A program made the translations under genes and the position numbers. Shown in pieces: positions 1 through 61,675 of a DNA stretch of 64,000 bases. The DNA comes from Escherichia phage vB_EcoM-RPN242. The notes beneath the pieces were generated by a model. It was given only the letters and a program-made list of their open reading frames with translations. It did not search any database and was not told the DNA's origin. Every line of letters begins with the position of its first letter. Positions within the stretch are counted from its first letter, which is position 1. The DNA is taken from the sequence record OL656110.1; one strand, written 5' to 3'.

Positions 1-1802
1 CCTTCCAACGCAGCGATAGAGTTCTCCAGGTCGGTGGTAGGTGTTGGCTGTACAGCCAGTTTACGCTCCAGATCGGCAATAGACGCCACGAGAGGAGCAC
101 GACGGGCTTTCAGCTCGGCGATCTTATCATCGACGGCTTTAATCCCGCTGACGGCATTCTCTCGCGTCTGTTGCAGCGAAGCAGTGATATCTTCAAAACG
201 AACGTTCAGTGCCTTACGGATGTCAAGGATCTTCTGTTGGCATTCACGGTTCAGCGAATTACACTCAATCGTGGCGGCATCATGAAAACCTTGAATATCA
301 CGGCGCAGCTGCTTGATGTTGTCAACGATTTCGTCGGCCTGCTTGCGCATGGCATCCAGTTCAGCATCCAACACAGCAATGTCAGCAACCAGCTTGTCGT
401 CCTGAGCCTTGTGATCATCGATCAGGACATTGATATCGGCGGTAACTTTGTCCAGTTGATCTAACTTCGACTGTAGTTCCTGGATCTGAGGATTGTACTC
501 ACTCTCAATCCGCGCCTTGGTGTCATCAGACACCAGTTGGGTACATGTTGGGCAAGTCCCCATATCGTGGAAGCGCTTGATGGCCGACTGATGCCCCTCC
601 ATTTCAGTCTGGAACTTGATACGGAAGTTCTCACCCTGCTGGCGGCGCTGAATAGCAGCGTTCAGGGTGTCCAGGTTTGTGTTGCGCTCGGTGAGCAGGG
701 TGTTCTTGCGTTCGGCCACTGTAAAGGCGCGGTCACGCAAGACCTGAAGATCATGCTCCGCAGTAGACACTTCGATGCGCTCATAATCGTCAGCCTTGTC
801 CTGCGCGGCGTCCTTCACCGCCTGGATCTTGGCATCAAAGTCTTTCTTGACAGCCTCGATCTCCACCATGGATTCATCATGCAGGCGGCTTTCTACCGTC
901 TTCATTTCCTGGGTGGCTTCAAACTCCACAGCCGTGAGGCGGGTGCGCTCTTCATTCTGGGCGGCGATGTCAGCGTCTAGGGAAGTCAGGGCTTCCTGTT
1001 GCTGTACAAGGATATCGGCCGACTGCTGTTGGATAAGGGCATTGGACCGCTCTATCTGCTGTAGCTGCGTCTTCTTGTTGGTGCGGTCAACAACCTTCAA
1101 CGCACATTCATTCGCGATCGTGTCCAGCTTTTCGTTCGCTTTCTTGATGGCAGCCTTGACATCTTCGTTCATCAGGCTGAAGAAGCCCAAATCCCAGATA
1201 GTCTCCACCATGGCGCGGCGGTCGGCTGTGTACATCTCCGTGAACGGAATGAACTTCTCTTTGCCCAGCACCAGAGAGTTCTCAAACATCTTCTGGTCCA
1301 CGCCGATGAGGTTCACGATGTACTTGTTCATGTCGGCTTTGGCTGCTTCGTTATCGATCTGCAACCACTTGCCGTCCACCATCTGGTAGACTTCAACAAA
1401 GTCAGGTTTAATGCCACGGCGAACCTTCCATTCGCTACCACGGCAGGCAAACTCCACCTCACCCACACATTCCTTGCGGCTCTGTGAGTTAACCAGACCT
1501 GCCTTCTTCTCCTTCTTGCTGTATGTGTCGTTGTACAGTACGAAAAACAGCAGCCATACCAGCATCGTGGATTTACCCGCGCCGTTGTCATCAGACGTAA
1601 CAAGGGTGGCCGGGTTGCGCTGATAATCAATCTCCATGAACTGATTGCCGATGGAGCGGAAGTTCTTGGCGCGGCCTTTGCGGAAGGTCAGTTTGTGTGT
1701 AACAACGTTACGCACTTCAAATGGGACTTCAACCTCGACCGGGGCGTCGGCTTCCTTCAAAAGATTACCAAATTTGGTCAAGATATCTGTGCTCTGAGTC
1801 AT
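1..1802 (-). CDS. 46: SbcC/Rad50-like recombination ATPase (T4 gp46-like), C-terminus beyond window edge
   Basis: Minus-strand frame opens at ATG 1800-1802 and is still open at position 1. N-terminal Walker A DDNGAGKST, long coiled-coil stretch, CPTC zinc-hook-like motif. Sits directly downstream of the SbcD-like gene. Confidence 0.8.
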   Translation of the reverse strand, partial: MTQSTDILTKFGNLLKEADAPVEVEVPFEVRNVVTHKLTFRKGRAKNFRSIGNQFMEIDYQRNPATLVTSDDNGAGKSTMLVWLLFFVLYNDTYSKKEKKAGLVNSQSRKECVGEVEFACRGSEWKVRRGIKPDFVEVYQMVDGKWLQIDNEAAKADMNKYIVNLIGVDQKMFENSLVLGKEKFIPFTEMYTADRRAMVETIWDLGFFSLMNEDVKAAIKKANEKLDTIANECALKVVDRTNKKTQLQQIERSNALIQQQSADILVQQQEALTSLDADIAAQNEERTRLTAVEFEATQEMKTVESRLHDESMVEIEAVKKDFDAKIQAVKDAAQDKADDYERIEVSTAEHDLQVLRDRAFTVAERKNTLLTERNTNLDTLNAAIQRRQQGENFRIKFQTEMEGHQSAIKRFHDMGTCPTCTQLVSDDTKARIESEYNPQIQELQSKLDQLDKVTADINVLIDDHKAQDDKLVADIAVLDAELDAMRKQADEIVDNIKQLRRDIQGFHDAATIECNSLNRECQQKILDIRKALNVRFEDITASLQQTRENAVSGIKAVDDKIAELKARRAPLVASIADLERKLAVQPTPTTDLENSIAALE

Positions 1803-8452: not shown

Positions 8453-8508
8453 GATATAGTCACTCAAATGAAAGGGCAGCTTTATGATAAGCCGCCCGAG
8501 GTTATTGA

Positions 8509-18852: not shown

Positions 18853-18966
18853 GATGTAATCTTCCTGTTTCAGTTCAAATGTGCGCCCCGTTTGCCAGGG
18901 CGCTTCGTTTAAGTGAGGTCAGTATACGCTGGATTGAGTTATTGAAGAACGAAGTAAAGGGAATCT

Positions 18967-19896
18967 TTATTCAGAAGAACCATATCGTTCTGTCCATTTA
19001 GGACATTTCAAAGGTTCCCACCCTCTATTGAAACGTTCGATAATGCTGTTTGTCGCATTAAAAGCCTTCAGGTCTTTTGTTCTGTACACATGCATGAGGG
19101 CTTCCGCTCTTTTCATTGTTTTTATTGCTTCAAGGAATTTATCAGCTTTTGACCAATACGCATCATTGTCGGGGTTCCATTTACCCTTCTCCCAAGGCAT
19201 CTTAGCCAACATGCCTTTCTGAGCGTTTTCTTTCTGTTTGGCGCGTTGCTCTGGTGTGAATGAGTTGGTTAAGTCCTTCCCATAATTGGGATTGAGTTCC
19301 CCAAGTTTAGCTTTACTGGCACGTTCAGAAAATTGTTCTAAATCTATGTTGGCGCGGCGTTTCTCTAAAACCCGCCTTTTATATTCAGGATCAGAAGCCA
19401 TCCTTTCATGGATTTTCATCAATCCTTTGGTAATTTTCTTGACTTGCTCTGGGGTTCTCTTATATCCATATTGGGGATTATTCTTTCCTCTTCTCCCATA
19501 CATTGGGTTGTTTGCCCCGACGCATTTGGAGACACCCTTTGTGAGTTTGGATATTCTTTGTCCAAATTCTTTCCTTAACTTTTCGTAAAGGTGAGAATTA
19601 AATTTTATACCCGTTGGTGTATACCTACCCCCACGGCTCATCAAAAGAACAGCATATACCATATCAGAATTCGGGAAAGCCAAGGCCAAGCATACATGGA
19701 CAAGATAATGTTGTCTGCCTGTTAATCGAACCAAATTTATCTTATCTTTAGAATATTCAGGGAACATGCTCTTGGGAAGGATGTGGTGCAATTCAGTGTA
19801 GTCACCATCAGAATATTTGAAAGATTGAACCATCATCAAATACTTCTTGATGAAATGCGGTTTACCGCCTTTAGAAATCAATAATTCGTAAAACAT
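18967..19896 (-). CDS. HNH homing endonuclease with NUMOD-like repeats (free-standing)
   Basis: HNH core TELHHILPKSMFPEYSKDKINLVRLTGRQHYLVH plus repeated NPMYGRRGKNNPQYG motifs; sits between core genes. Confidence 0.8.
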   Translation of the reverse strand: MFYELLISKGGKPHFIKKYLMMVQSFKYSDGDYTELHHILPKSMFPEYSKDKINLVRLTGRQHYLVHVCLALAFPNSDMVYAVLLMSRGGRYTPTGIKFNSHLYEKLRKEFGQRISKLTKGVSKCVGANNPMYGRRGKNNPQYGYKRTPEQVKKITKGLMKIHERMASDPEYKRRVLEKRRANIDLEQFSERASKAKLGELNPNYGKDLTNSFTPEQRAKQKENAQKGMLAKMPWEKGKWNPDNDAYWSKADKFLEAIKTMKRAEALMHVYRTKDLKAFNATNSIIERFNRGWEPLKCPKWTERYGSSE

Positions 19897-19955
19897 AACA
19901 GGAACTCCAAATGAAAGTTCCTGTTATAATATACTTTCTTAACTCACAAAGTAAG

Positions 19956-21149
19956 TTACTTTTTAAATAAATTTAGTAGGTTTTTAGAACCAGATGTCGC
20001 TTTAGGTTGTCCTTCCCCATCGTATCCAACCTTCCCGCGCGGTTTTTTACCTTGCTGTACAGCCTCTACACAACGGGTATATTTCTGAAGTTCACAAAAC
20101 ATATTTTCTCCTGCCATTATATTTAAATGGCGATCCCAAGGCTCTTCCACAGACCAAAATTCTTCCCTGTTATACCCAAGAGGACCATAAACTGCGTCCT
20201 GGTTGTCCCGTAGCCAGAAGATGCATTCTTCGTGGGTCATACCGTCTTTGTTCAGGAACAGCAGATCAATACCTGCGCGACAGCCTGGTCCAGCAACCGT
20301 GAAGTGGTTCTCACTGAAAGGATATTCAGGAATGTAAGTGAAGTCTACCCAGATCTGATAGGCCAGGAATGGACCAAGCCCTTCGATGTCGTCATACATG
20401 CGCTGGTATACTTCCAAAGGAGTACCAAGGCGCAGCAGGTCATGGAAATAATTTGGATACTTGTTGACGAATGCCTTCAGGGAGCGGATGACACGCATTG
20501 GCATGTACGGTTCCCAACCTTCGATGGTGTAGAAGTCCGGCTCTGCTTCGGCTATCGCCTTGGCTTCTTTATAATCCATGTTCTGGGTTGAACCGTCTTT
20601 ACAGATCAGATTCACCATCATCCCACCGAAGCGCTGCTCCTTGTGGTTGACAACCATCTCAGGGAAAGCCAGGCATTGCTTCAGGCCGCCCGTGTTGAAG
20701 GCATTGGTGAATACCTTACCGCCGTCGGCCTCGAACTTCTGAAGTCGTTCGCGGGTTGCATCGAGGTTGATCTCGGCGAATTCTTTGATCGTCATCGCGC
20801 CGCCGATAGCCTGGATTGGATCCCAGAGGTTGAACATGCGGAACATCACGCAGTTGAACATCTTGTCGGCCATACCCAGAGCATCGTTGTTGACAATGTT
20901 GTTGATCAGGTTGAGAGACTGCCTGTCGTGCTCTCTCCGGACATTACAGAACTTGACCTGCCGTAGTATGGGATTATCAGTCCAAGGAGCAGGAAGGCGC
21001 TGGACGTCCTTCTTGACGTGGATCTGATAACGATCGCGCATCCATTCGTAAGACAGGCGGGTATGGGTCGGACTGAGAACCGGTTTGGCCGACTTTATCT
21101 TTTCTTCACGGACACCGCAGTACGGGACGTCTAGGGCTTTATCTTTCAT
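19956..21149 (-). CDS. hypothetical protein (397 aa)
   Basis: ORF with good SD AGAGGA 5 nt upstream; no assignable motif. Confidence 0.65.
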   Translation of the reverse strand: MKDKALDVPYCGVREEKIKSAKPVLSPTHTRLSYEWMRDRYQIHVKKDVQRLPAPWTDNPILRQVKFCNVRREHDRQSLNLINNIVNNDALGMADKMFNCVMFRMFNLWDPIQAIGGAMTIKEFAEINLDATRERLQKFEADGGKVFTNAFNTGGLKQCLAFPEMVVNHKEQRFGGMMVNLICKDGSTQNMDYKEAKAIAEAEPDFYTIEGWEPYMPMRVIRSLKAFVNKYPNYFHDLLRLGTPLEVYQRMYDDIEGLGPFLAYQIWVDFTYIPEYPFSENHFTVAGPGCRAGIDLLFLNKDGMTHEECIFWLRDNQDAVYGPLGYNREEFWSVEEPWDRHLNIMAGENMFCELQKYTRCVEAVQQGKKPRGKVGYDGEGQPKATSGSKNLLNLFKK

Positions 21150-24017: not shown

Positions 24018-24037
24018 TTTCAGCCTCGTGTAGAAGA

Positions 24038-24068
24038 ATCATTTCAAATAGGCGGGGAACGCCCCGCC
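24038..24068 (-). terminator. hairpin/terminator between gp45 and gp44 genes
   Basis: GGCGGGG-aacg-CCCCGCC hairpin with a moderately T-rich tail. Confidence 0.4.
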
Positions 24069-24098
24069 CACACATTATAGCATCAGGCTGGAGATTGA

Positions 24099-24767
24099 TT
24101 ACTCAATCTGTGCGCCGACGAAGTAATTGATCGTCGCGTCGGATGATTGGAAGTTCACCATCTGTAGATCAGCACAGGCACGCAGAGTGTAGTTGCCTTC
24201 GATCATTTTCAGGTTGGCAACATCCAGCGGCATTACGAAGTCCGGCAGCGCGGTTTCGCCCAGCTCAACAGTGTAGTTGTTGGAGTTGTCCAAGGTAGTG
24301 GTGGTTGCAACCAGGCGAGTTTTGCCACCCTGAGCAACCAGGCGCACAGTCTTGTGTCCGAGGGTAGAGCAGGCGCGGGTCAGTTCTTTCATCTTCTCTG
24401 GAGTGATGATCGCTTCAAAGTCAACAGACGGCAGTTCAATGGTGTCAGCCGGGACAACCGTGAGTTCTTTAGCAGAACGCCAGAATTGCAGCTGAGAGCT
24501 TTCGCCTTTCAACAGGATGTAGTCCTGATGGAATTCGGCTTTGGCACCTTTGAAGGAAGGTAGGCGCTGGATGGCCAGAAGTTTGGTCAGGTCCAGAATC
24601 GGGAACTCAAACGGGAAGTCTTCTTCGATCTGCGCCACGGCGATCACAGTAGAAGAATCATTAATACTGCGCAGCATCTTACCCGGTGTCAGAACGATAG
24701 ATGGGTTGATGGTCTCAAAGTTGGCCAGCAACTGAAGTGTACGTTCGGAGAGAGTGATCTCTTGCAT
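24099..24767 (-). CDS. 45: sliding clamp (T4 gp45-like)
   Basis: 222 aa; N-terminus LLANFETINPSIVL parallels T4 gp45 LLKNFATINSGIML; gene order 45-44-62-regA matches T4. Confidence 0.8.
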   Translation of the reverse strand: MQEITLSERTLQLLANFETINPSIVLTPGKMLRSINDSSTVIAVAQIEEDFPFEFPILDLTKLLAIQRLPSFKGAKAEFHQDYILLKGESSQLQFWRSAKELTVVPADTIELPSVDFEAIITPEKMKELTRACSTLGHKTVRLVAQGGKTRLVATTTTLDNSNNYTVELGETALPDFVMPLDVANLKMIEGNYTLRACADLQMVNFQSSDATINYFVGAQIE

Positions 24768-24898
24768 TTGTATGTATCCTCAAAATATAGTGGGGGTTCA
24801 AGTCATGTTTGACGCAATCTAGTATCGCTGTGTTTTGTTTATAGAACAAGTGGCAAATTGCGCTACGCGTTATTAATAAATGCCTTCGGCATTTATGG

Positions 24899-24952
24899 AC
24901 TTTATTAAAGATAATAACCTTTATTAAAGATAATAATCTTTATTAATCCTAT
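24899..24952. repeat. tandem direct repeat (about 2.5 copies of a 20-bp AT-rich unit)
   Basis: ACTTTATTAAAGATAATAAC / CTTTATTAAAGATAATAATC / TTTATTAATCC, within a 360-bp AT-rich intergenic region. Confidence 0.7.
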
Positions 24953-24979
24953 TCGCTTCGCTCATAAAACAAATACTCG

Positions 24980-25009
24980 TTGTTCGCTAACGCTCACAAC
25001 TCGTATAAT
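24980..25009 (+). promoter_or_regulatory. sigma70-like promoter candidate for the plus-strand gene at 25129
   Basis: TTGTTC, 18-nt spacer, perfect TATAAT, about 120 nt upstream of the start. Confidence 0.4.
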
Positions 25010-25128
25010 ACCACGCCATTGTTCAACAAGAAAGCAGTTTTTATTCAACAGCAAAATTAATTTATTTGGTCTAAACATGCACGCGAAATAATATGTATGT
25101 CATGTTAACCAACACACGAGAGTAATAT

Positions 25129-25500
25129 ATGAAACAGTTCGTAGGTTTATACGCAGTCGGGTGTAGTAAGCCAGACGCCAACCTCACCACAGGTCAATTT
25201 ATCACAGGCACCCCAGTTTATCTGACACAGCTGGCGTCAGACAAGAACTTACCATCGGAACCGCGATTTGTCCCCCTTGGCTTGATGACAGGCCTGAAAG
25301 TTGGTCTGTATGTCGGCGTTGTGACGTTTGAAAACGGCATCGAAGCGAAGGTTCTGCCATTCAAATTGGGTAGTGAACAAATGCTGAAGGATACGATCAG
25401 TGAACACCTGAACTCACAATGTCTGGCTTCTCTGGATAAATTGTTCGGCGTAGTATCTGATGAAGGCGAGGCCACCCCCGCCTATGTGAATCAAGATTAA
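25129..25500 (+). CDS. hypothetical protein (plus strand; possible lipoprotein)
   Basis: 123-aa ORF with SD GAGAG; N-terminus MKQFVGLYAVGC carries a lipobox-like AVGC. Confidence 0.55.
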   Translation: MKQFVGLYAVGCSKPDANLTTGQFITGTPVYLTQLASDKNLPSEPRFVPLGLMTGLKVGLYVGVVTFENGIEAKVLPFKLGSEQMLKDTISEHLNSQCLASLDKLFGVVSDEGEATPAYVNQD

Positions 25501-27005: not shown

Positions 27006-27030
27006 ACAAAATCTCCCAAGGATTATGGGG

Positions 27031-27037
27031 TATTTAG
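27031..27037 (-). promoter_or_regulatory. late-promoter-like motif CTAAATACCCC upstream of uvsW
   Basis: Minus-strand CTAAATA about 25 nt upstream of the start codon; T4 late consensus is TATAAATA. Confidence 0.45.
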
Positions 27038-27780
27038 TGATCCGGCCAGACTCCGTTTTGTTCTTTATCCATGCGATGATACAGACGAACACGCTCAAAC
27101 ATCTTTGTCAGAATGTCATCACGGTTGAACTCAATGACGGTTGGTAGAGGGGAAGACTCGTTGGCGATCACGTTGATGAGGCGGGTGATCTTGACGCCGA
27201 ACATCTGCTGGAACATGACCGAATATAAGCACAGCTGGATACTGTAATCCTCGATCATGCCCCGCGTCTTCATGGTGTTCGATGTCTTGAAGTCGATGAC
27301 AGCAGGTTTACCCTCATAAACCCCGATAAGGTCTACACGACCTGCAAGACCAAGCACCTCACTATATAATGGGATCTCCTGAGCATAGATCTTTGTCATC
27401 TTGTTCAGGTAAGGGAACAGCTGCTTGAACATGAACATGTATTCGCCAGCCGCTTCCAACACTTCTTTCATTGGGCGGTTCTTTAGATACAGTTCACACG
27501 CAAGGTGCAGCTTCTCCCCTCGGTCAGCACAGCGCATGGTCTCAAGATCAGCGGCCTCTGCGCCCAGCTTCTTCCTCCAAGACTCAAGCCATTCATGATC
27601 TCCAGTGCGTCCCAGCATAGTCGTGACGGATGTCAGTTTTACACCAGACGGTGAAACGTAATGACGACCATTCTCCGTCGTAACACACTCCAGTTCCTTA
27701 TGAGGAAGTTCGTATTGCTGGAATGTGTAATGACGGTTTTCGAAGTCATTCAGCTTGCGTAGATCCTGGAGAGATGCCAT
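27034..27780 (-). CDS. PD-(D/E)XK exonuclease-like protein (YqaJ/lambda-Exo-like)
   Basis: GRVDLIGV...AVIDFKTS...YSIQLCLY fits the D...(D/E)xK...QxxxY nuclease motif; SD GAGGA. Confidence 0.55.
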   Translation of the reverse strand: MASLQDLRKLNDFENRHYTFQQYELPHKELECVTTENGRHYVSPSGVKLTSVTTMLGRTGDHEWLESWRKKLGAEAADLETMRCADRGEKLHLACELYLKNRPMKEVLEAAGEYMFMFKQLFPYLNKMTKIYAQEIPLYSEVLGLAGRVDLIGVYEGKPAVIDFKTSNTMKTRGMIEDYSIQLCLYSVMFQQMFGVKITRLINVIANESSPLPTVIEFNRDDILTKMFERVRLYHRMDKEQNGVWPDH

Positions 27781-32354: not shown

Positions 32355-32386
32355 GGGCAATAATACCTCTCGCCCCGTTATTGAAA
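32355..32386 (-). repeat. 32-bp conserved intergenic element, copy B
   Basis: GGGCAATAATACCTCTCGCCCCGTTATTGAAA, identical to 32615-32646; ends about 26 nt upstream of the next start codon. Confidence 0.7.
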
Positions 32387-32614: not shown

Positions 32615-32646
32615 GGGCAATAATACCTCTCGCCCCGTTATTGAAA
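32615..32646 (-). repeat. 32-bp conserved intergenic element, copy A
   Basis: Identical to 32355-32386; ends about 25 nt upstream of ATG 32590. Confidence 0.7.
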
Positions 32647-36496: not shown

Positions 36497-36523
36497 GATT
36501 GTTTCCTTCTGAACGATTTTCAG

Positions 36524-36530
36524 TATTTAG
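36524..36530 (-). promoter_or_regulatory. late-promoter-like motif CTAAATAC upstream of scaffold gene
   Basis: About 27 nt upstream of ATG 36496. Confidence 0.45.
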
Positions 36531-36541
36531 TGAGGCTGAAT

Positions 36542-47045: not shown

Positions 47046-47068
47046 ATCAATACCCTCAATTTTGAAGG

Positions 47069-47075
47069 TATTTAG
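47069..47075 (-). promoter_or_regulatory. late-promoter-like motif CTAAATACC upstream of neck gene
   Basis: About 24 nt upstream of ATG 47045. Confidence 0.45.
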
Positions 47076-47104
47076 TCGAAGTTTATTCTTTTGAGGAATA
47101 GCTC

Positions 47105-58963: not shown

Positions 58964-58984
58964 AAAGGATTTGCCAATATGGGG

Positions 58985-58991
58985 TATTTAG
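58985..58991 (-). promoter_or_regulatory. late-promoter-like motif CTAAATACCCC upstream of tailspike 2
   Basis: Part of a conserved cassette repeated at 61647. Confidence 0.45.
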
Positions 58992-59014
58992 TCTGAACTA
59001 ATAAATTTATAAAC

Positions 59015-61616: not shown

Positions 61617-61646
61617 GATAATACCCCAAGAATGACCAATATGGGG

Positions 61647-61653
61647 TATTTAG
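61647..61653 (-). promoter_or_regulatory. late-promoter-like motif CTAAATACCCC upstream of tailspike 3
   Basis: Part of a conserved cassette repeated at 58985. Confidence 0.45.
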
Positions 61654-61675
61654 TCTGAACTAATAAATTTATGAA

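Follow-up and report, generated by a model that had tools for sequence, protein, structure and literature searches.

The 361-bp gap between the sliding-clamp gene gp45 and a small divergent gene is probably a two-way promoter and control region that is conserved across the family Ackermannviridae, and the tandem repeat at its centre would be a variable spacer. Conservation is concentrated in the two flanks of the gap, where hexamer pairs with promoter-like spacing face both genes. The central repeat varies in copy number between closely related phages, and the gap has neither coding capacity nor a conserved RNA structure. Its two targets would be the gp45-gp44-gp62-regA block on the minus strand and an orphan gene for a 123-aa protein on the plus strand, and the promoters in both conserved flanks would be of the host sigma70-like type.

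The gap and its gene neighbourhood

The window, i.e. the whole stretch of 64 kb that was analysed, belongs to an Agtrevirus-like phage of the Ackermannviridae. A 2-kb query around the gap matches phages of this family, with 97-98% identity over the 2 kb to the Escherichia phages LHE287, A221, YX22 and AV101, ~94% to the Shigella phages Ag3 and SKML-39 (Agtrevirus) and ~91% to Dickeya Limestonevirus; for Salmonella Kuttervirus, identity is in the range of 60-80%. The local gene order in LHE287 is regA, gp62, gp44 and gp45 (all minus strand), the gap, a hypothetical gene of 123 aa (plus strand) and, beyond it, uvsW, a hypothetical gene and uvsY on the minus strand. In all five genera examined the gap is flanked by gp45 on the minus strand and the small divergent 123-aa gene on the plus strand. 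Nearly all genes of the window lie on the minus strand and the 123-aa gene is the lone plus-strand gene in a long minus-strand block, hence the divergent arrangement is local and does not mark a genome-scale strand switch. The clamp gene, whose match to the Pfam family PF09116 (gp45-slide_C) is weak (18.6 bits, with a gathering cut-off of 25 bits), stands first in the gp45-gp44-gp62-regA block that the gap region would serve.

The protein encoded on the other side, which carries the motif ASLDKLFG, matches only phrog_4255, a PHROG family of unknown function. No Pfam family and no DNA-binding signature was found for it, and its AlphaFold model (pLDDT 79) has no fold match in the PDB at E <= 0.001. 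Comparison with RpbA of T4 showed no similarity (hhalign probability 0.06%), and a role as regulator or initiator was set aside for a protein that lacks a functional family, a fold match and a DNA-binding signature.

An earlier note on this DNA had singled out the gap as a long, AT-rich non-coding stretch between the clamp gene and a plus-strand gene, and both features hold. When genes are called with a crude greedy procedure, no other ORF-free stretch of the window is as long, and its GC content is 0.33 vs 0.48 for the window. According to nearest-neighbour energies, it also contains the 50-bp segment with the lowest stability in the window (GC 0.14); at a scale of 100-360 bp the gap region ranks second, the stretch at 19.6-20.0 kb being the least stable. 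The segment 24870-25069, which comprises the repeat tract, the site P1 and its first 60 downstream bases, has a GC content of 0.29. The features discussed below are collected in Table 1.

Table 1. Positions in the window of the genes, conservation blocks and sequence elements discussed in the text
Feature	Position	Strand	Sequence	Remarks
gp45 sliding-clamp gene	24099-24767	minus		From the ORF list, the annotation of 98%-identical LHE287 and a weak Pfam match
P0, promoter-like site	24762-24791	plus	TTGCAT-18-TATAGT	Spacer 16 to 18 across genomes; -35 overlaps the gp45 start codon
ORF-free gap	24768-25128			361 bp, between gp45 (minus) and the 123-aa ORF (plus)
Block A	24768-24852
gp45 Shine-Dalgarno	24777-24781	minus	GAGGA	Read from the sequence; plus-strand TCCTC invariant
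Small conserved stem	24802-24814	minus	GTCA/TGAC	In the putative gp45 leader; from the alignment
P45, promoter-like site	24849-24821	minus	TTGTTC-17-GATACT	Candidate clamp-operon promoter, ~45 bp upstream of the gp45 start codon
Block B	24853-24950			Hairpin and repeat
Palindrome (hairpin)	24876-24896		ATAAATGCC-TTC-GGCATTTAT	9-bp stem, 3-nt loop, 3 G-C pairs
Tandem repeat	24900-24946		CTTTATTAAAGATAATAAC x 2.5	19-bp unit; from TRF
Least stable 50 bp	24902-24951			GC 0.14
Block C	24951-25012
Box 1	24953-24963	plus	TCGCTTCGCTC	Upstream of P1; 80% invariant; conserved even in Miltonvirus Kevin
P1, promoter-like site	24980-25009	plus	TTG(T/C)TC-17/18-TATA(A/T/G)T	Faces the 123-aa gene; TTGTTC-18-TATAAT in the window
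Box 2	24984-24995	plus	TCGCTAACGCTC	TCGCAAAGCTC in other genera; repeats the box within the spacer of P1
Block D	25013-25128
11-bp palindrome	25019-25029		TTGTTCAACAA	Lies a few bases beyond the start predicted for P1; 82% invariant
P2, promoter-like site	25066-25094	plus	TTGGTC-17-TA(A/T)TAT	TAATAT in the window; A/T-rich stretch upstream; ~35 bp before the ATG
123-aa orphan gene (phrog_4255)	25129-25500	plus		25118-25500 with the Shine-Dalgarno GAGAG

Conserved flanks and promoter-like sites

A search with the 361-bp gap finds 273 phage records, 270 of which cover at least 80% of it; the matches include Kuttervirus (~77-79% identity), Taipeivirus (~70%) and, in part, Miltonvirus. For a closer view, ten genomes with representatives of five Ackermannviridae genera were aligned. 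Third codon positions of gp45 are 48-54% identical to those of Kuttervirus and Taipeivirus, which is near saturation. In the same comparison the outer blocks of the gap are far better preserved, with 78-84% identity in block A, 78-80% in block C and 68-74% in block D; across the whole alignment, columns 24782-24820 are 79% invariant. For block B, with the hairpin and the repeat, identity drops to 58% in Kuttervirus and to 30-35% in Taipeivirus, and this middle part drifts at about the neutral rate. These values support strong purifying selection on the flanks across the five genera, and with conserved hexamer pairs facing both genes they lend substance to the suggestion of the earlier note that the gap is a regulatory hub with divergent promoters. 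Among the more distant relatives, identity of the 123-aa protein falls to 37-47%, so the DNA upstream is much better kept than the gene that it adjoins. A scan of IMG/VR for exact matches to GCTCACAACTCGTATA returned 20 loci, of which 16 represent the homologous Ackermannviridae region and four (three distinct sequences) are unrelated chance matches. Fourteen of the 16 homologous loci, two of them partly cut at a locus end, derive from isolate-type genome records; one metagenome contig of 154 kb has a repeat number identical to that of the window, and locus L029 covers the distal part only. The scan added no deeper divergence.

Promoter-like sites were sought with a simple -35/-10 weight matrix on both strands of the ten aligned sequences, and those falling in the same alignment column were kept. 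Four such sites, P0, P1, P2 and P45, are common to nine of the ten genomes. The hexamers of P45, P1 and P2 are 83-100% invariant, and the spacers of P45 and P2 are 41-47% invariant with a length that is fixed in nine genomes, such that the latter two sites display what looks like the classic footprint of a promoter, namely hexamers invariant at 5-6 of 6 positions and separated by a drifting spacer of fixed length. At P45 both hexamers are invariant (6/6 each) and the spacer, constant in length, is invariant at 8/17 positions; its weight-matrix score is only 6.3 and its -10 hexamer (GATACT) is poor. From its position and conservation we infer that P45 is the promoter of the clamp operon. The corresponding values for P2 are 6/6 for the -35 hexamer, 7/17 for the spacer and 5/6 for the -10 hexamer. 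Every -35 hexamer in the gap matches the consensus only at TTG.

P1 scores 9.9-11.5 across nine of the ten genomes, and its -10 hexamer varies only at the fifth base (TATAAT, TATATT or TATAGT), whereby T1, A2 and T6 are kept. The earlier note had described this site as near-consensus. The pair is indeed present in the window and its -10 hexamer is perfect, but the description was too generous, as the match is 9/12 with an 18-bp spacer and the -35 hexamer agrees at only 3/6 positions; for the same reasons P1 was missed by a consensus scan. In a position-weight scan, 31 sites of the window are at least as good as P1, compared to 30.6 expected from shuffles, and the support for P1 therefore comes from its position and its conservation rather than from the bare motif. 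The same applies more generally to the divergent arrangement, in which pairs spaced by 16-18 bp face each of the two genes with a bare motif strength at chance level. The spacer of P1 is 78% invariant, and together with the region upstream it is highly conserved. Read on the minus strand, the -10 hexamer of P1 is TATTAT, and two-way initiation from this site is possible. As for P0, the minus-strand reading of its bases is CACTATATTT, directly upstream of the Shine-Dalgarno sequence of gp45, and their conservation may instead serve the expression of gp45. The small GTCA/TGAC stem in the putative gp45 leader has a loop that is 2 nt longer in Taipeivirus with an unchanged stem; four invariant pairs are predicted, and no covariation was seen.

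Around P1, conservation extends beyond the hexamers. The two boxes share the form TCGC-N3/4-GCTC, which is even clearer in Kevin, the most distant genome, and Box 1 is a candidate factor-binding site upstream of P1. The 11-bp palindrome, followed 22 bp further on by the half-repeat TTATTCAACA, is unique in the window as an exact match and its position is operator-like. Boxes and palindrome alike have the look of factor-binding sites. A plain untranslated leader would not call for the degree of conservation seen in the block downstream of P1, so more than promoters seems to be preserved there. The conserved boxes, palindrome and blocks do not recur elsewhere in the 64-kb window; with the boxes and the palindrome unique, no regulon can be defined and no binding protein named.

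It should be noted that two phage-specific promoter motifs recur in the window. ACTAAATAC occurs in five exact copies, each on the minus strand and directly upstream of a gene, uvsW being one of these, and TCAATAAC-N11-TAnnnT has four matches, where 0.13 would be expected. Both are absent from the gap. Use of the T4 late motif TATAAATA by this phage was rejected; it has only two chance matches in the window, both on the plus strand. The record of LIMEstone1 marks a 'putative middle promoter' and 'putative promoter' features within the gap, which were placed in silico by pattern searches (PMC3296691). The annotated positions differ from those of the pairs that are best conserved in our alignment. 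In the literature that we searched, nothing experimental on transcriptome, 5'-end, promoter or origin mapping in Ackermannviridae was found.

The central repeat, the hairpin and RNA readings

The tandem repeat had been described in the earlier note as 2.5 copies of a 20-bp unit. The copy number stands, but the period is 19 bp and the limits of the array are those given in Table 1. With 96% matches and a TRF score of 87 it is by far the best array of the window; its unit gives two matches against 0.02 expected, and none elsewhere in the window. In the Aglimvirinae the tract reads CTTTATTAAAGATAATAA(C/T) followed by CTTTATTAA. There are 1.5 copies in Ag3, LIMEstone1, AV101, fGh-Ecl02, SW16-7 and CAU_YEP3, 2.5 copies in the window, LHE287, YX22 and one IMG/VR metagenome contig, and 3.5 copies in A221. 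Copy number thus differs by whole units among phages that are 97-98% identical over the surrounding 2 kb, the behaviour by which a variable-number tandem repeat (VNTR) is recognized between near-identical genomes. Kuttervirus and Taipeivirus lack the repeat and have unrelated A/T-rich sequence in its place, and Serratia phage IME250 carries an independent 8-bp tandem duplication at the same position. With only 15% invariant columns, the repeat tract is the least conserved part of the gap.

The 1.5-copy state, which we take as ancestral, carries CTTTATTAA as a 9-bp direct repeat able to seed slippage. Each additional unit of 19 bp alters both the distance between the flanks and their helical phase, yet 1.5-3.5 copies are tolerated, which argues that neither distance nor phase is critical. 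Hence, the sequence comparison suggests that the repeat is most likely a slippage-prone spacer of variable copy number rather than a set of origin iterons. It has all the marks of intergenic VNTRs and slipped-strand duplications in A/T-rich spacers, with head-to-tail copies that are 95-100% identical, whole-unit copy differences, the 9-bp seed and the independent duplication in IME250, and we see no notable difference from them.

The earlier note had also considered the iteron-like repeats compatible with a replication origin. At an iteron origin, an initiator would bind the 19-bp direct repeats and melt the adjacent A/T-rich DNA in the manner of plasmids or lambda. The repeats are of iteron-like length, an A/T-rich region that could be unwound is adjacent (24902-24951), and replication genes adjoin. 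In T4, oriE has evenly spaced 12-nt repeats of unproven role that are conserved in syntenic regions of relatives (PMC3016281). Short direct repeats, an A/T-rich intergenic region and a nearby early-type promoter are what the gap shares with oriE and with plasmid iteron origins. However, the repeats of oriE are 12 nt long, evenly spaced, multiple and conserved, whereas those of the gap are 19 bp long, number 1.5-3.5, are restricted to one lineage and are polymorphic in length. Where an iteron origin should have at least three evenly spaced and conserved repeats, the window has only 2.5 copies and most Aglimvirinae have 1.5, with a number that varies among phages 97-98% identical. Furthermore, Kuttervirus and Taipeivirus have retained the remainder of the gap but lack the repeat, a period of 19 bp does not match the helical phase, and the unit is found nowhere else in the window. 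Nor does an initiator-like gene adjoin, the 123-aa protein showing no family, no fold match and no signature of DNA binding. The comparative data seem already to have largely refuted iterons, and we regard an origin of this type as barely credible.

Next to the repeat lies the palindrome, for which the earlier note was right about the 9-bp stem and the TTC loop and two bases off in placing its start at 24874 instead of 24876. As RNA it would fold with -9.3 kcal/mol on the plus strand and -8.8 kcal/mol on the minus strand, with z values of about -3.2 to -3.8. Aglimvirinae and Kuttervirus have the same stem but different loops (TTC vs TGAC); Taipeivirus has a different, A/T-only palindrome at this place (-3.5 kcal/mol), and no obvious palindrome is found there in Kevin. 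No compensatory changes or covariation were seen among the aligned genomes. A terminator scan lists the hairpin on the plus strand only, as the sole terminator-like site in the area, and its minus-strand tail is U-poor. The gp44-gp45 terminator, by comparison, is G+C-rich and covaries between genera, and likewise the other terminators upstream of window genes. The hairpin could at best terminate or insulate weakly and about equally in both directions, or it could be a palindrome bound by a protein.

The gap does not appear to encode a protein or a structured RNA. Among small ORFs of at least 15 codons in the ten genomes, none is conserved in frame, with reading frame, start codon and extent all changing, and a 38-aa minus-strand ORF was rejected as a conserved gene, being specific to the window and broken in Ag3. 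An Rfam search of 24600-25300 at E <= 10 gave two chance-level matches only (best E = 2.4). For the plus-strand leader, RNAalifold predicts 0 consensus pairs and folding is no better than for shuffles (z = +0.69); in the upstream stretch (24795-24910) it predicts 10 mostly invariant pairs only and no conserved structure. A structured non-coding RNA or riboswitch leader was accordingly discarded for want of covariation, an Rfam family match and a consensus structure. The scan result for the hairpin could nevertheless be read as the end of a small non-coding RNA of ~105 nt, which would start near 24798 from P0 and terminate with the hairpin and a U-rich tail at ~24905. In favour of such an RNA, P0 (TTGCAT-16..18-TATAGT) is kept in nine of ten genomes, the only terminator-like scan result of the area is the hairpin on the plus strand, and the stretch in between is well conserved. 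The P0 hexamers, however, overlap the start codon and translation-initiation region of gp45, which explains their conservation, and the proposed RNA has no consensus structure, no convincing covariation and no Rfam match. Its hairpin contains only 3 G-C pairs and is replaced by an A/U-only stem (-3.5 kcal/mol) in Taipeivirus, while the real terminators of the phage are G+C-rich with compensatory changes. Taken together, a small RNA at this position is very improbable.

Replication, comparison with T4 and significance

Origins of replication in T4 may be simpler than iteron arrays. The minimal oriF and oriG of T4 comprise ~100 bp with a promoter and a downstream A/T-rich unwinding element that has no sequence requirement; some T4 origins lack a skew signal, and skew is a weak guide in T4-like phages (PMC3016281). 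In the window, cumulative GC skew, one of the checks that the earlier note had proposed, falls monotonically at 2-kb resolution with no extremum or turning point near the gap at 25 kb, and a local change of sign at 300-bp resolution coincides with the change of coding strand.

An origin of the oriF/oriG type, in which a promoter transcript forms a persistent R-loop in the A/T tract and primes the leading strand, would draw on much of the anatomy described above. As in oriF (uvsY) and oriG (PMC3016281), promoter-like sites and easily melted A/T-rich DNA, here the least stable 50 bp of the window, lie within ~100-150 bp of each other near uvsW and uvsY; gp45 adjoins as well, and uvsW carries a late-promoter-like motif, as in T4. 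A minus-strand start at the TATTAT of P1 would moreover run into the A/T tract 50-100 bp downstream. In contrast to the T4 origins, however, the least stable tract lies upstream of the best promoters, P1 and P2, which are directed away from it, and is downstream only of the weak minus-strand site sharing the -10 hexamer of P1. There is neither a GC-skew turning point nor a strand switch, over 100-360 bp the stretch at 19.6-20.0 kb equals or exceeds the gap region in instability, and the candidate middle-class motif of the phage, TCAATAAC-N11-TAnnnT, is absent from the gap. Finally, an unwinding element needs A/T richness only and would leave the sequence conservation of the flanks, which far exceeds such needs, unexplained. 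We therefore consider an oriF/oriG-type origin unlikely as the explanation of the gap. An origin made of a promoter and an unwinding element could coexist with promoter function and is compatible with the anatomy, but nothing specific indicates one, and we give it a slim chance. It is tempting to speculate further that 24951-25128 is a platform for an Ackermannviridae-specific factor that couples expression of the clamp and clamp-loader operon to the initiation of replication, with a factor-controlled, oriF-like R-loop origin for which the A/T repeat tract would be a length-tolerant unwinding element; this, too, is a long shot.

We favour the reading of the gap as a two-way promoter and control region. 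P45 would drive the clamp and clamp-loader operon, whose leader of ~45 nt and ribosome-binding site are conserved, and P1 and P2 in tandem on the plus strand would drive the orphan gene. The two TCGC-N3/4-GCTC boxes and the 11-bp palindrome around P1 probably bind a regulator of the host or the phage, either operator- or activator-like. The central 100 bp would separate and insulate the two sets of promoters, the hairpin may damp transcription entering from either side, and the 19-bp repeat presumably grew from the 1.5-copy ancestral state by slipped-strand duplication. Which of the hexamer pairs fire, when they do so during infection and that a factor binds the boxes is what we infer from the conservation and arrangement of these elements.

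Close counterparts are the sigma70 promoter regions that stand back to back at early and replication genes of T4-type phages, an example being the control region of the 45-44-62-regA cluster of T4, which likewise lies upstream of the same block, is A/T-rich, contains several -10/-35-like pairs and has a conserved translation-initiation region, with the translational repressor gene regA in the same operon. T4 has rpbA upstream of 45, transcribed in the same direction and separated from it by only ~55 bp, whereas in the present phage the upstream gene is a divergent orphan with no detectable similarity to RpbA and the gap, at 361 bp, is long and conserved. The T4 late motif is not used here either, and no element of the MotA-box type was recognised. 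The gap is probably an element of an ordinary kind, a conserved divergent promoter region; what is left as new is how deeply the sequence around P1 is conserved.

The tandem repeat, although it catches the eye most, looks the least functional of all parts of the gap, and it provides a handy length-polymorphic marker for the typing of close Agtrevirus-like phages. The Ackermannviridae include ViI, CBA120, LIMEstone and many phages that have been proposed for biocontrol. For this family, the gap is a source of family-wide promoter parts and, since few non-coding stretches close to the replication genes are as well conserved, a sensible target for 5'-end mapping.

Recurrent motifs as candidate phage promoters

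Exact matches to ACTAAATAC occur five times in the window, each on the minus strand and directly upstream of genes, namely uvsW, the scaffold gene, gp14 and two tail-spike genes. The T4 late motif TATAAATA showed no enrichment in the window, and we propose that ACTAAATAC is probably the late-promoter motif of the Ackermannviridae, in place of the T4 element. The copy at 27030 falls between the listed TTG start of uvsW (27098) and its annotated ATG (27005), a placement that argues for the shorter version of the gene.

Another recurrent pattern, TCAATAAC-N11-TAnnnT, was observed four times against 0.13 expected in the window, always with the same orientation and 11-bp spacing; the two copies at about 32.4-32.6 kb are identical 25-mers. 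Its layout recalls that of T4 middle promoters, and it is predicted to be a second phage-specific promoter class.

Positions of recurrent motifs and of the gp44-gp45 terminator in the window
Feature	Position	Strand	Basis
ACTAAATAC	27030-27038, 36523-36531, 47068-47076, 58984-58992, 61646-61654	minus, all	exact matches in window
TCAATAAC-N11-TAnnnT	8484-8508, 18921-18945, 32360-32384, 32620-32644	minus	motif count in window
gp44-gp45 intergenic terminator GGCGGGG...CCCCGCC	24018-24098, and homologues		alignment A5

The surroundings of the clamp gene

The stem of the gp44-gp45 terminator carries compensatory changes between genera, and directly upstream on the minus strand lies TGCTATAAT, an extended -10 hexamer predicted for gp44. 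In some relatives (YX22, SW16-7 and CAU_YEP3), gp44 and gp45 are separated by an inserted gene of the homing-endonuclease type.

The 123-aa orphan protein (25129-25500, plus strand) is phrog_4255, found in Ackermannviridae only, and some records label it 'clamp loader subunit'. Its segment ASLDKLFG, followed by an invariant GEATPAYVNQ tail, matches at 7 of 8 residues the ASLDFLFG C-terminal tail of T4 DNA polymerase, the tail that binds the gp45 clamp. An AlphaFold model (pLDDT 79) gave no match at E <= 0.001 in a PDB fold search. The shared segment suggests that this may be a clamp-binding protein encoded beside the clamp gene.

Variation within the gap in relatives

Serratia phage IME250 carries an 8-bp tandem duplication, CTCAAATA x 2, in the spacer equivalent to 24897-24950, at the same spot as the window's 19-bp repeat and of independent origin. 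This independent duplication suggests that the gap spacer is generally slippage-prone.

Salmonella phage Se-I (MN871497; about 1700-1870 of the locus compared) is flagged UNVERIFIED_ORG. Its sequence is Kuttervirus-like up to the -10 hexamer of the candidate promoter P1, and downstream, in block D, 95% identical to the Aglimvirinae-type window. Either Se-I arose by recombination between subfamilies, the junction falling within the invariant GCTCACAACTCGTATA block, or its assembly is chimeric.

A/T-rich tracts and DNA hypermodification

The lowest thermodynamic stability in the window at 100-360 bp lies at 19637-19996 (GC 0.23-0.34), where the A/T content equals or exceeds that of the gap (24768-25128). 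This tract is situated around the start of the 5-hmdU DNA kinase gene and a NUMOD3-containing ORF.

The kinase gene itself (19956-21149, minus strand; PF18723, E = 1.8e-78) leads us to expect hypermodified thymidines in the phage DNA. A/T-rich control regions such as the gap would be densely modified in mature phage DNA, and such dense thymidine modification may affect their promoter and melting behaviour.
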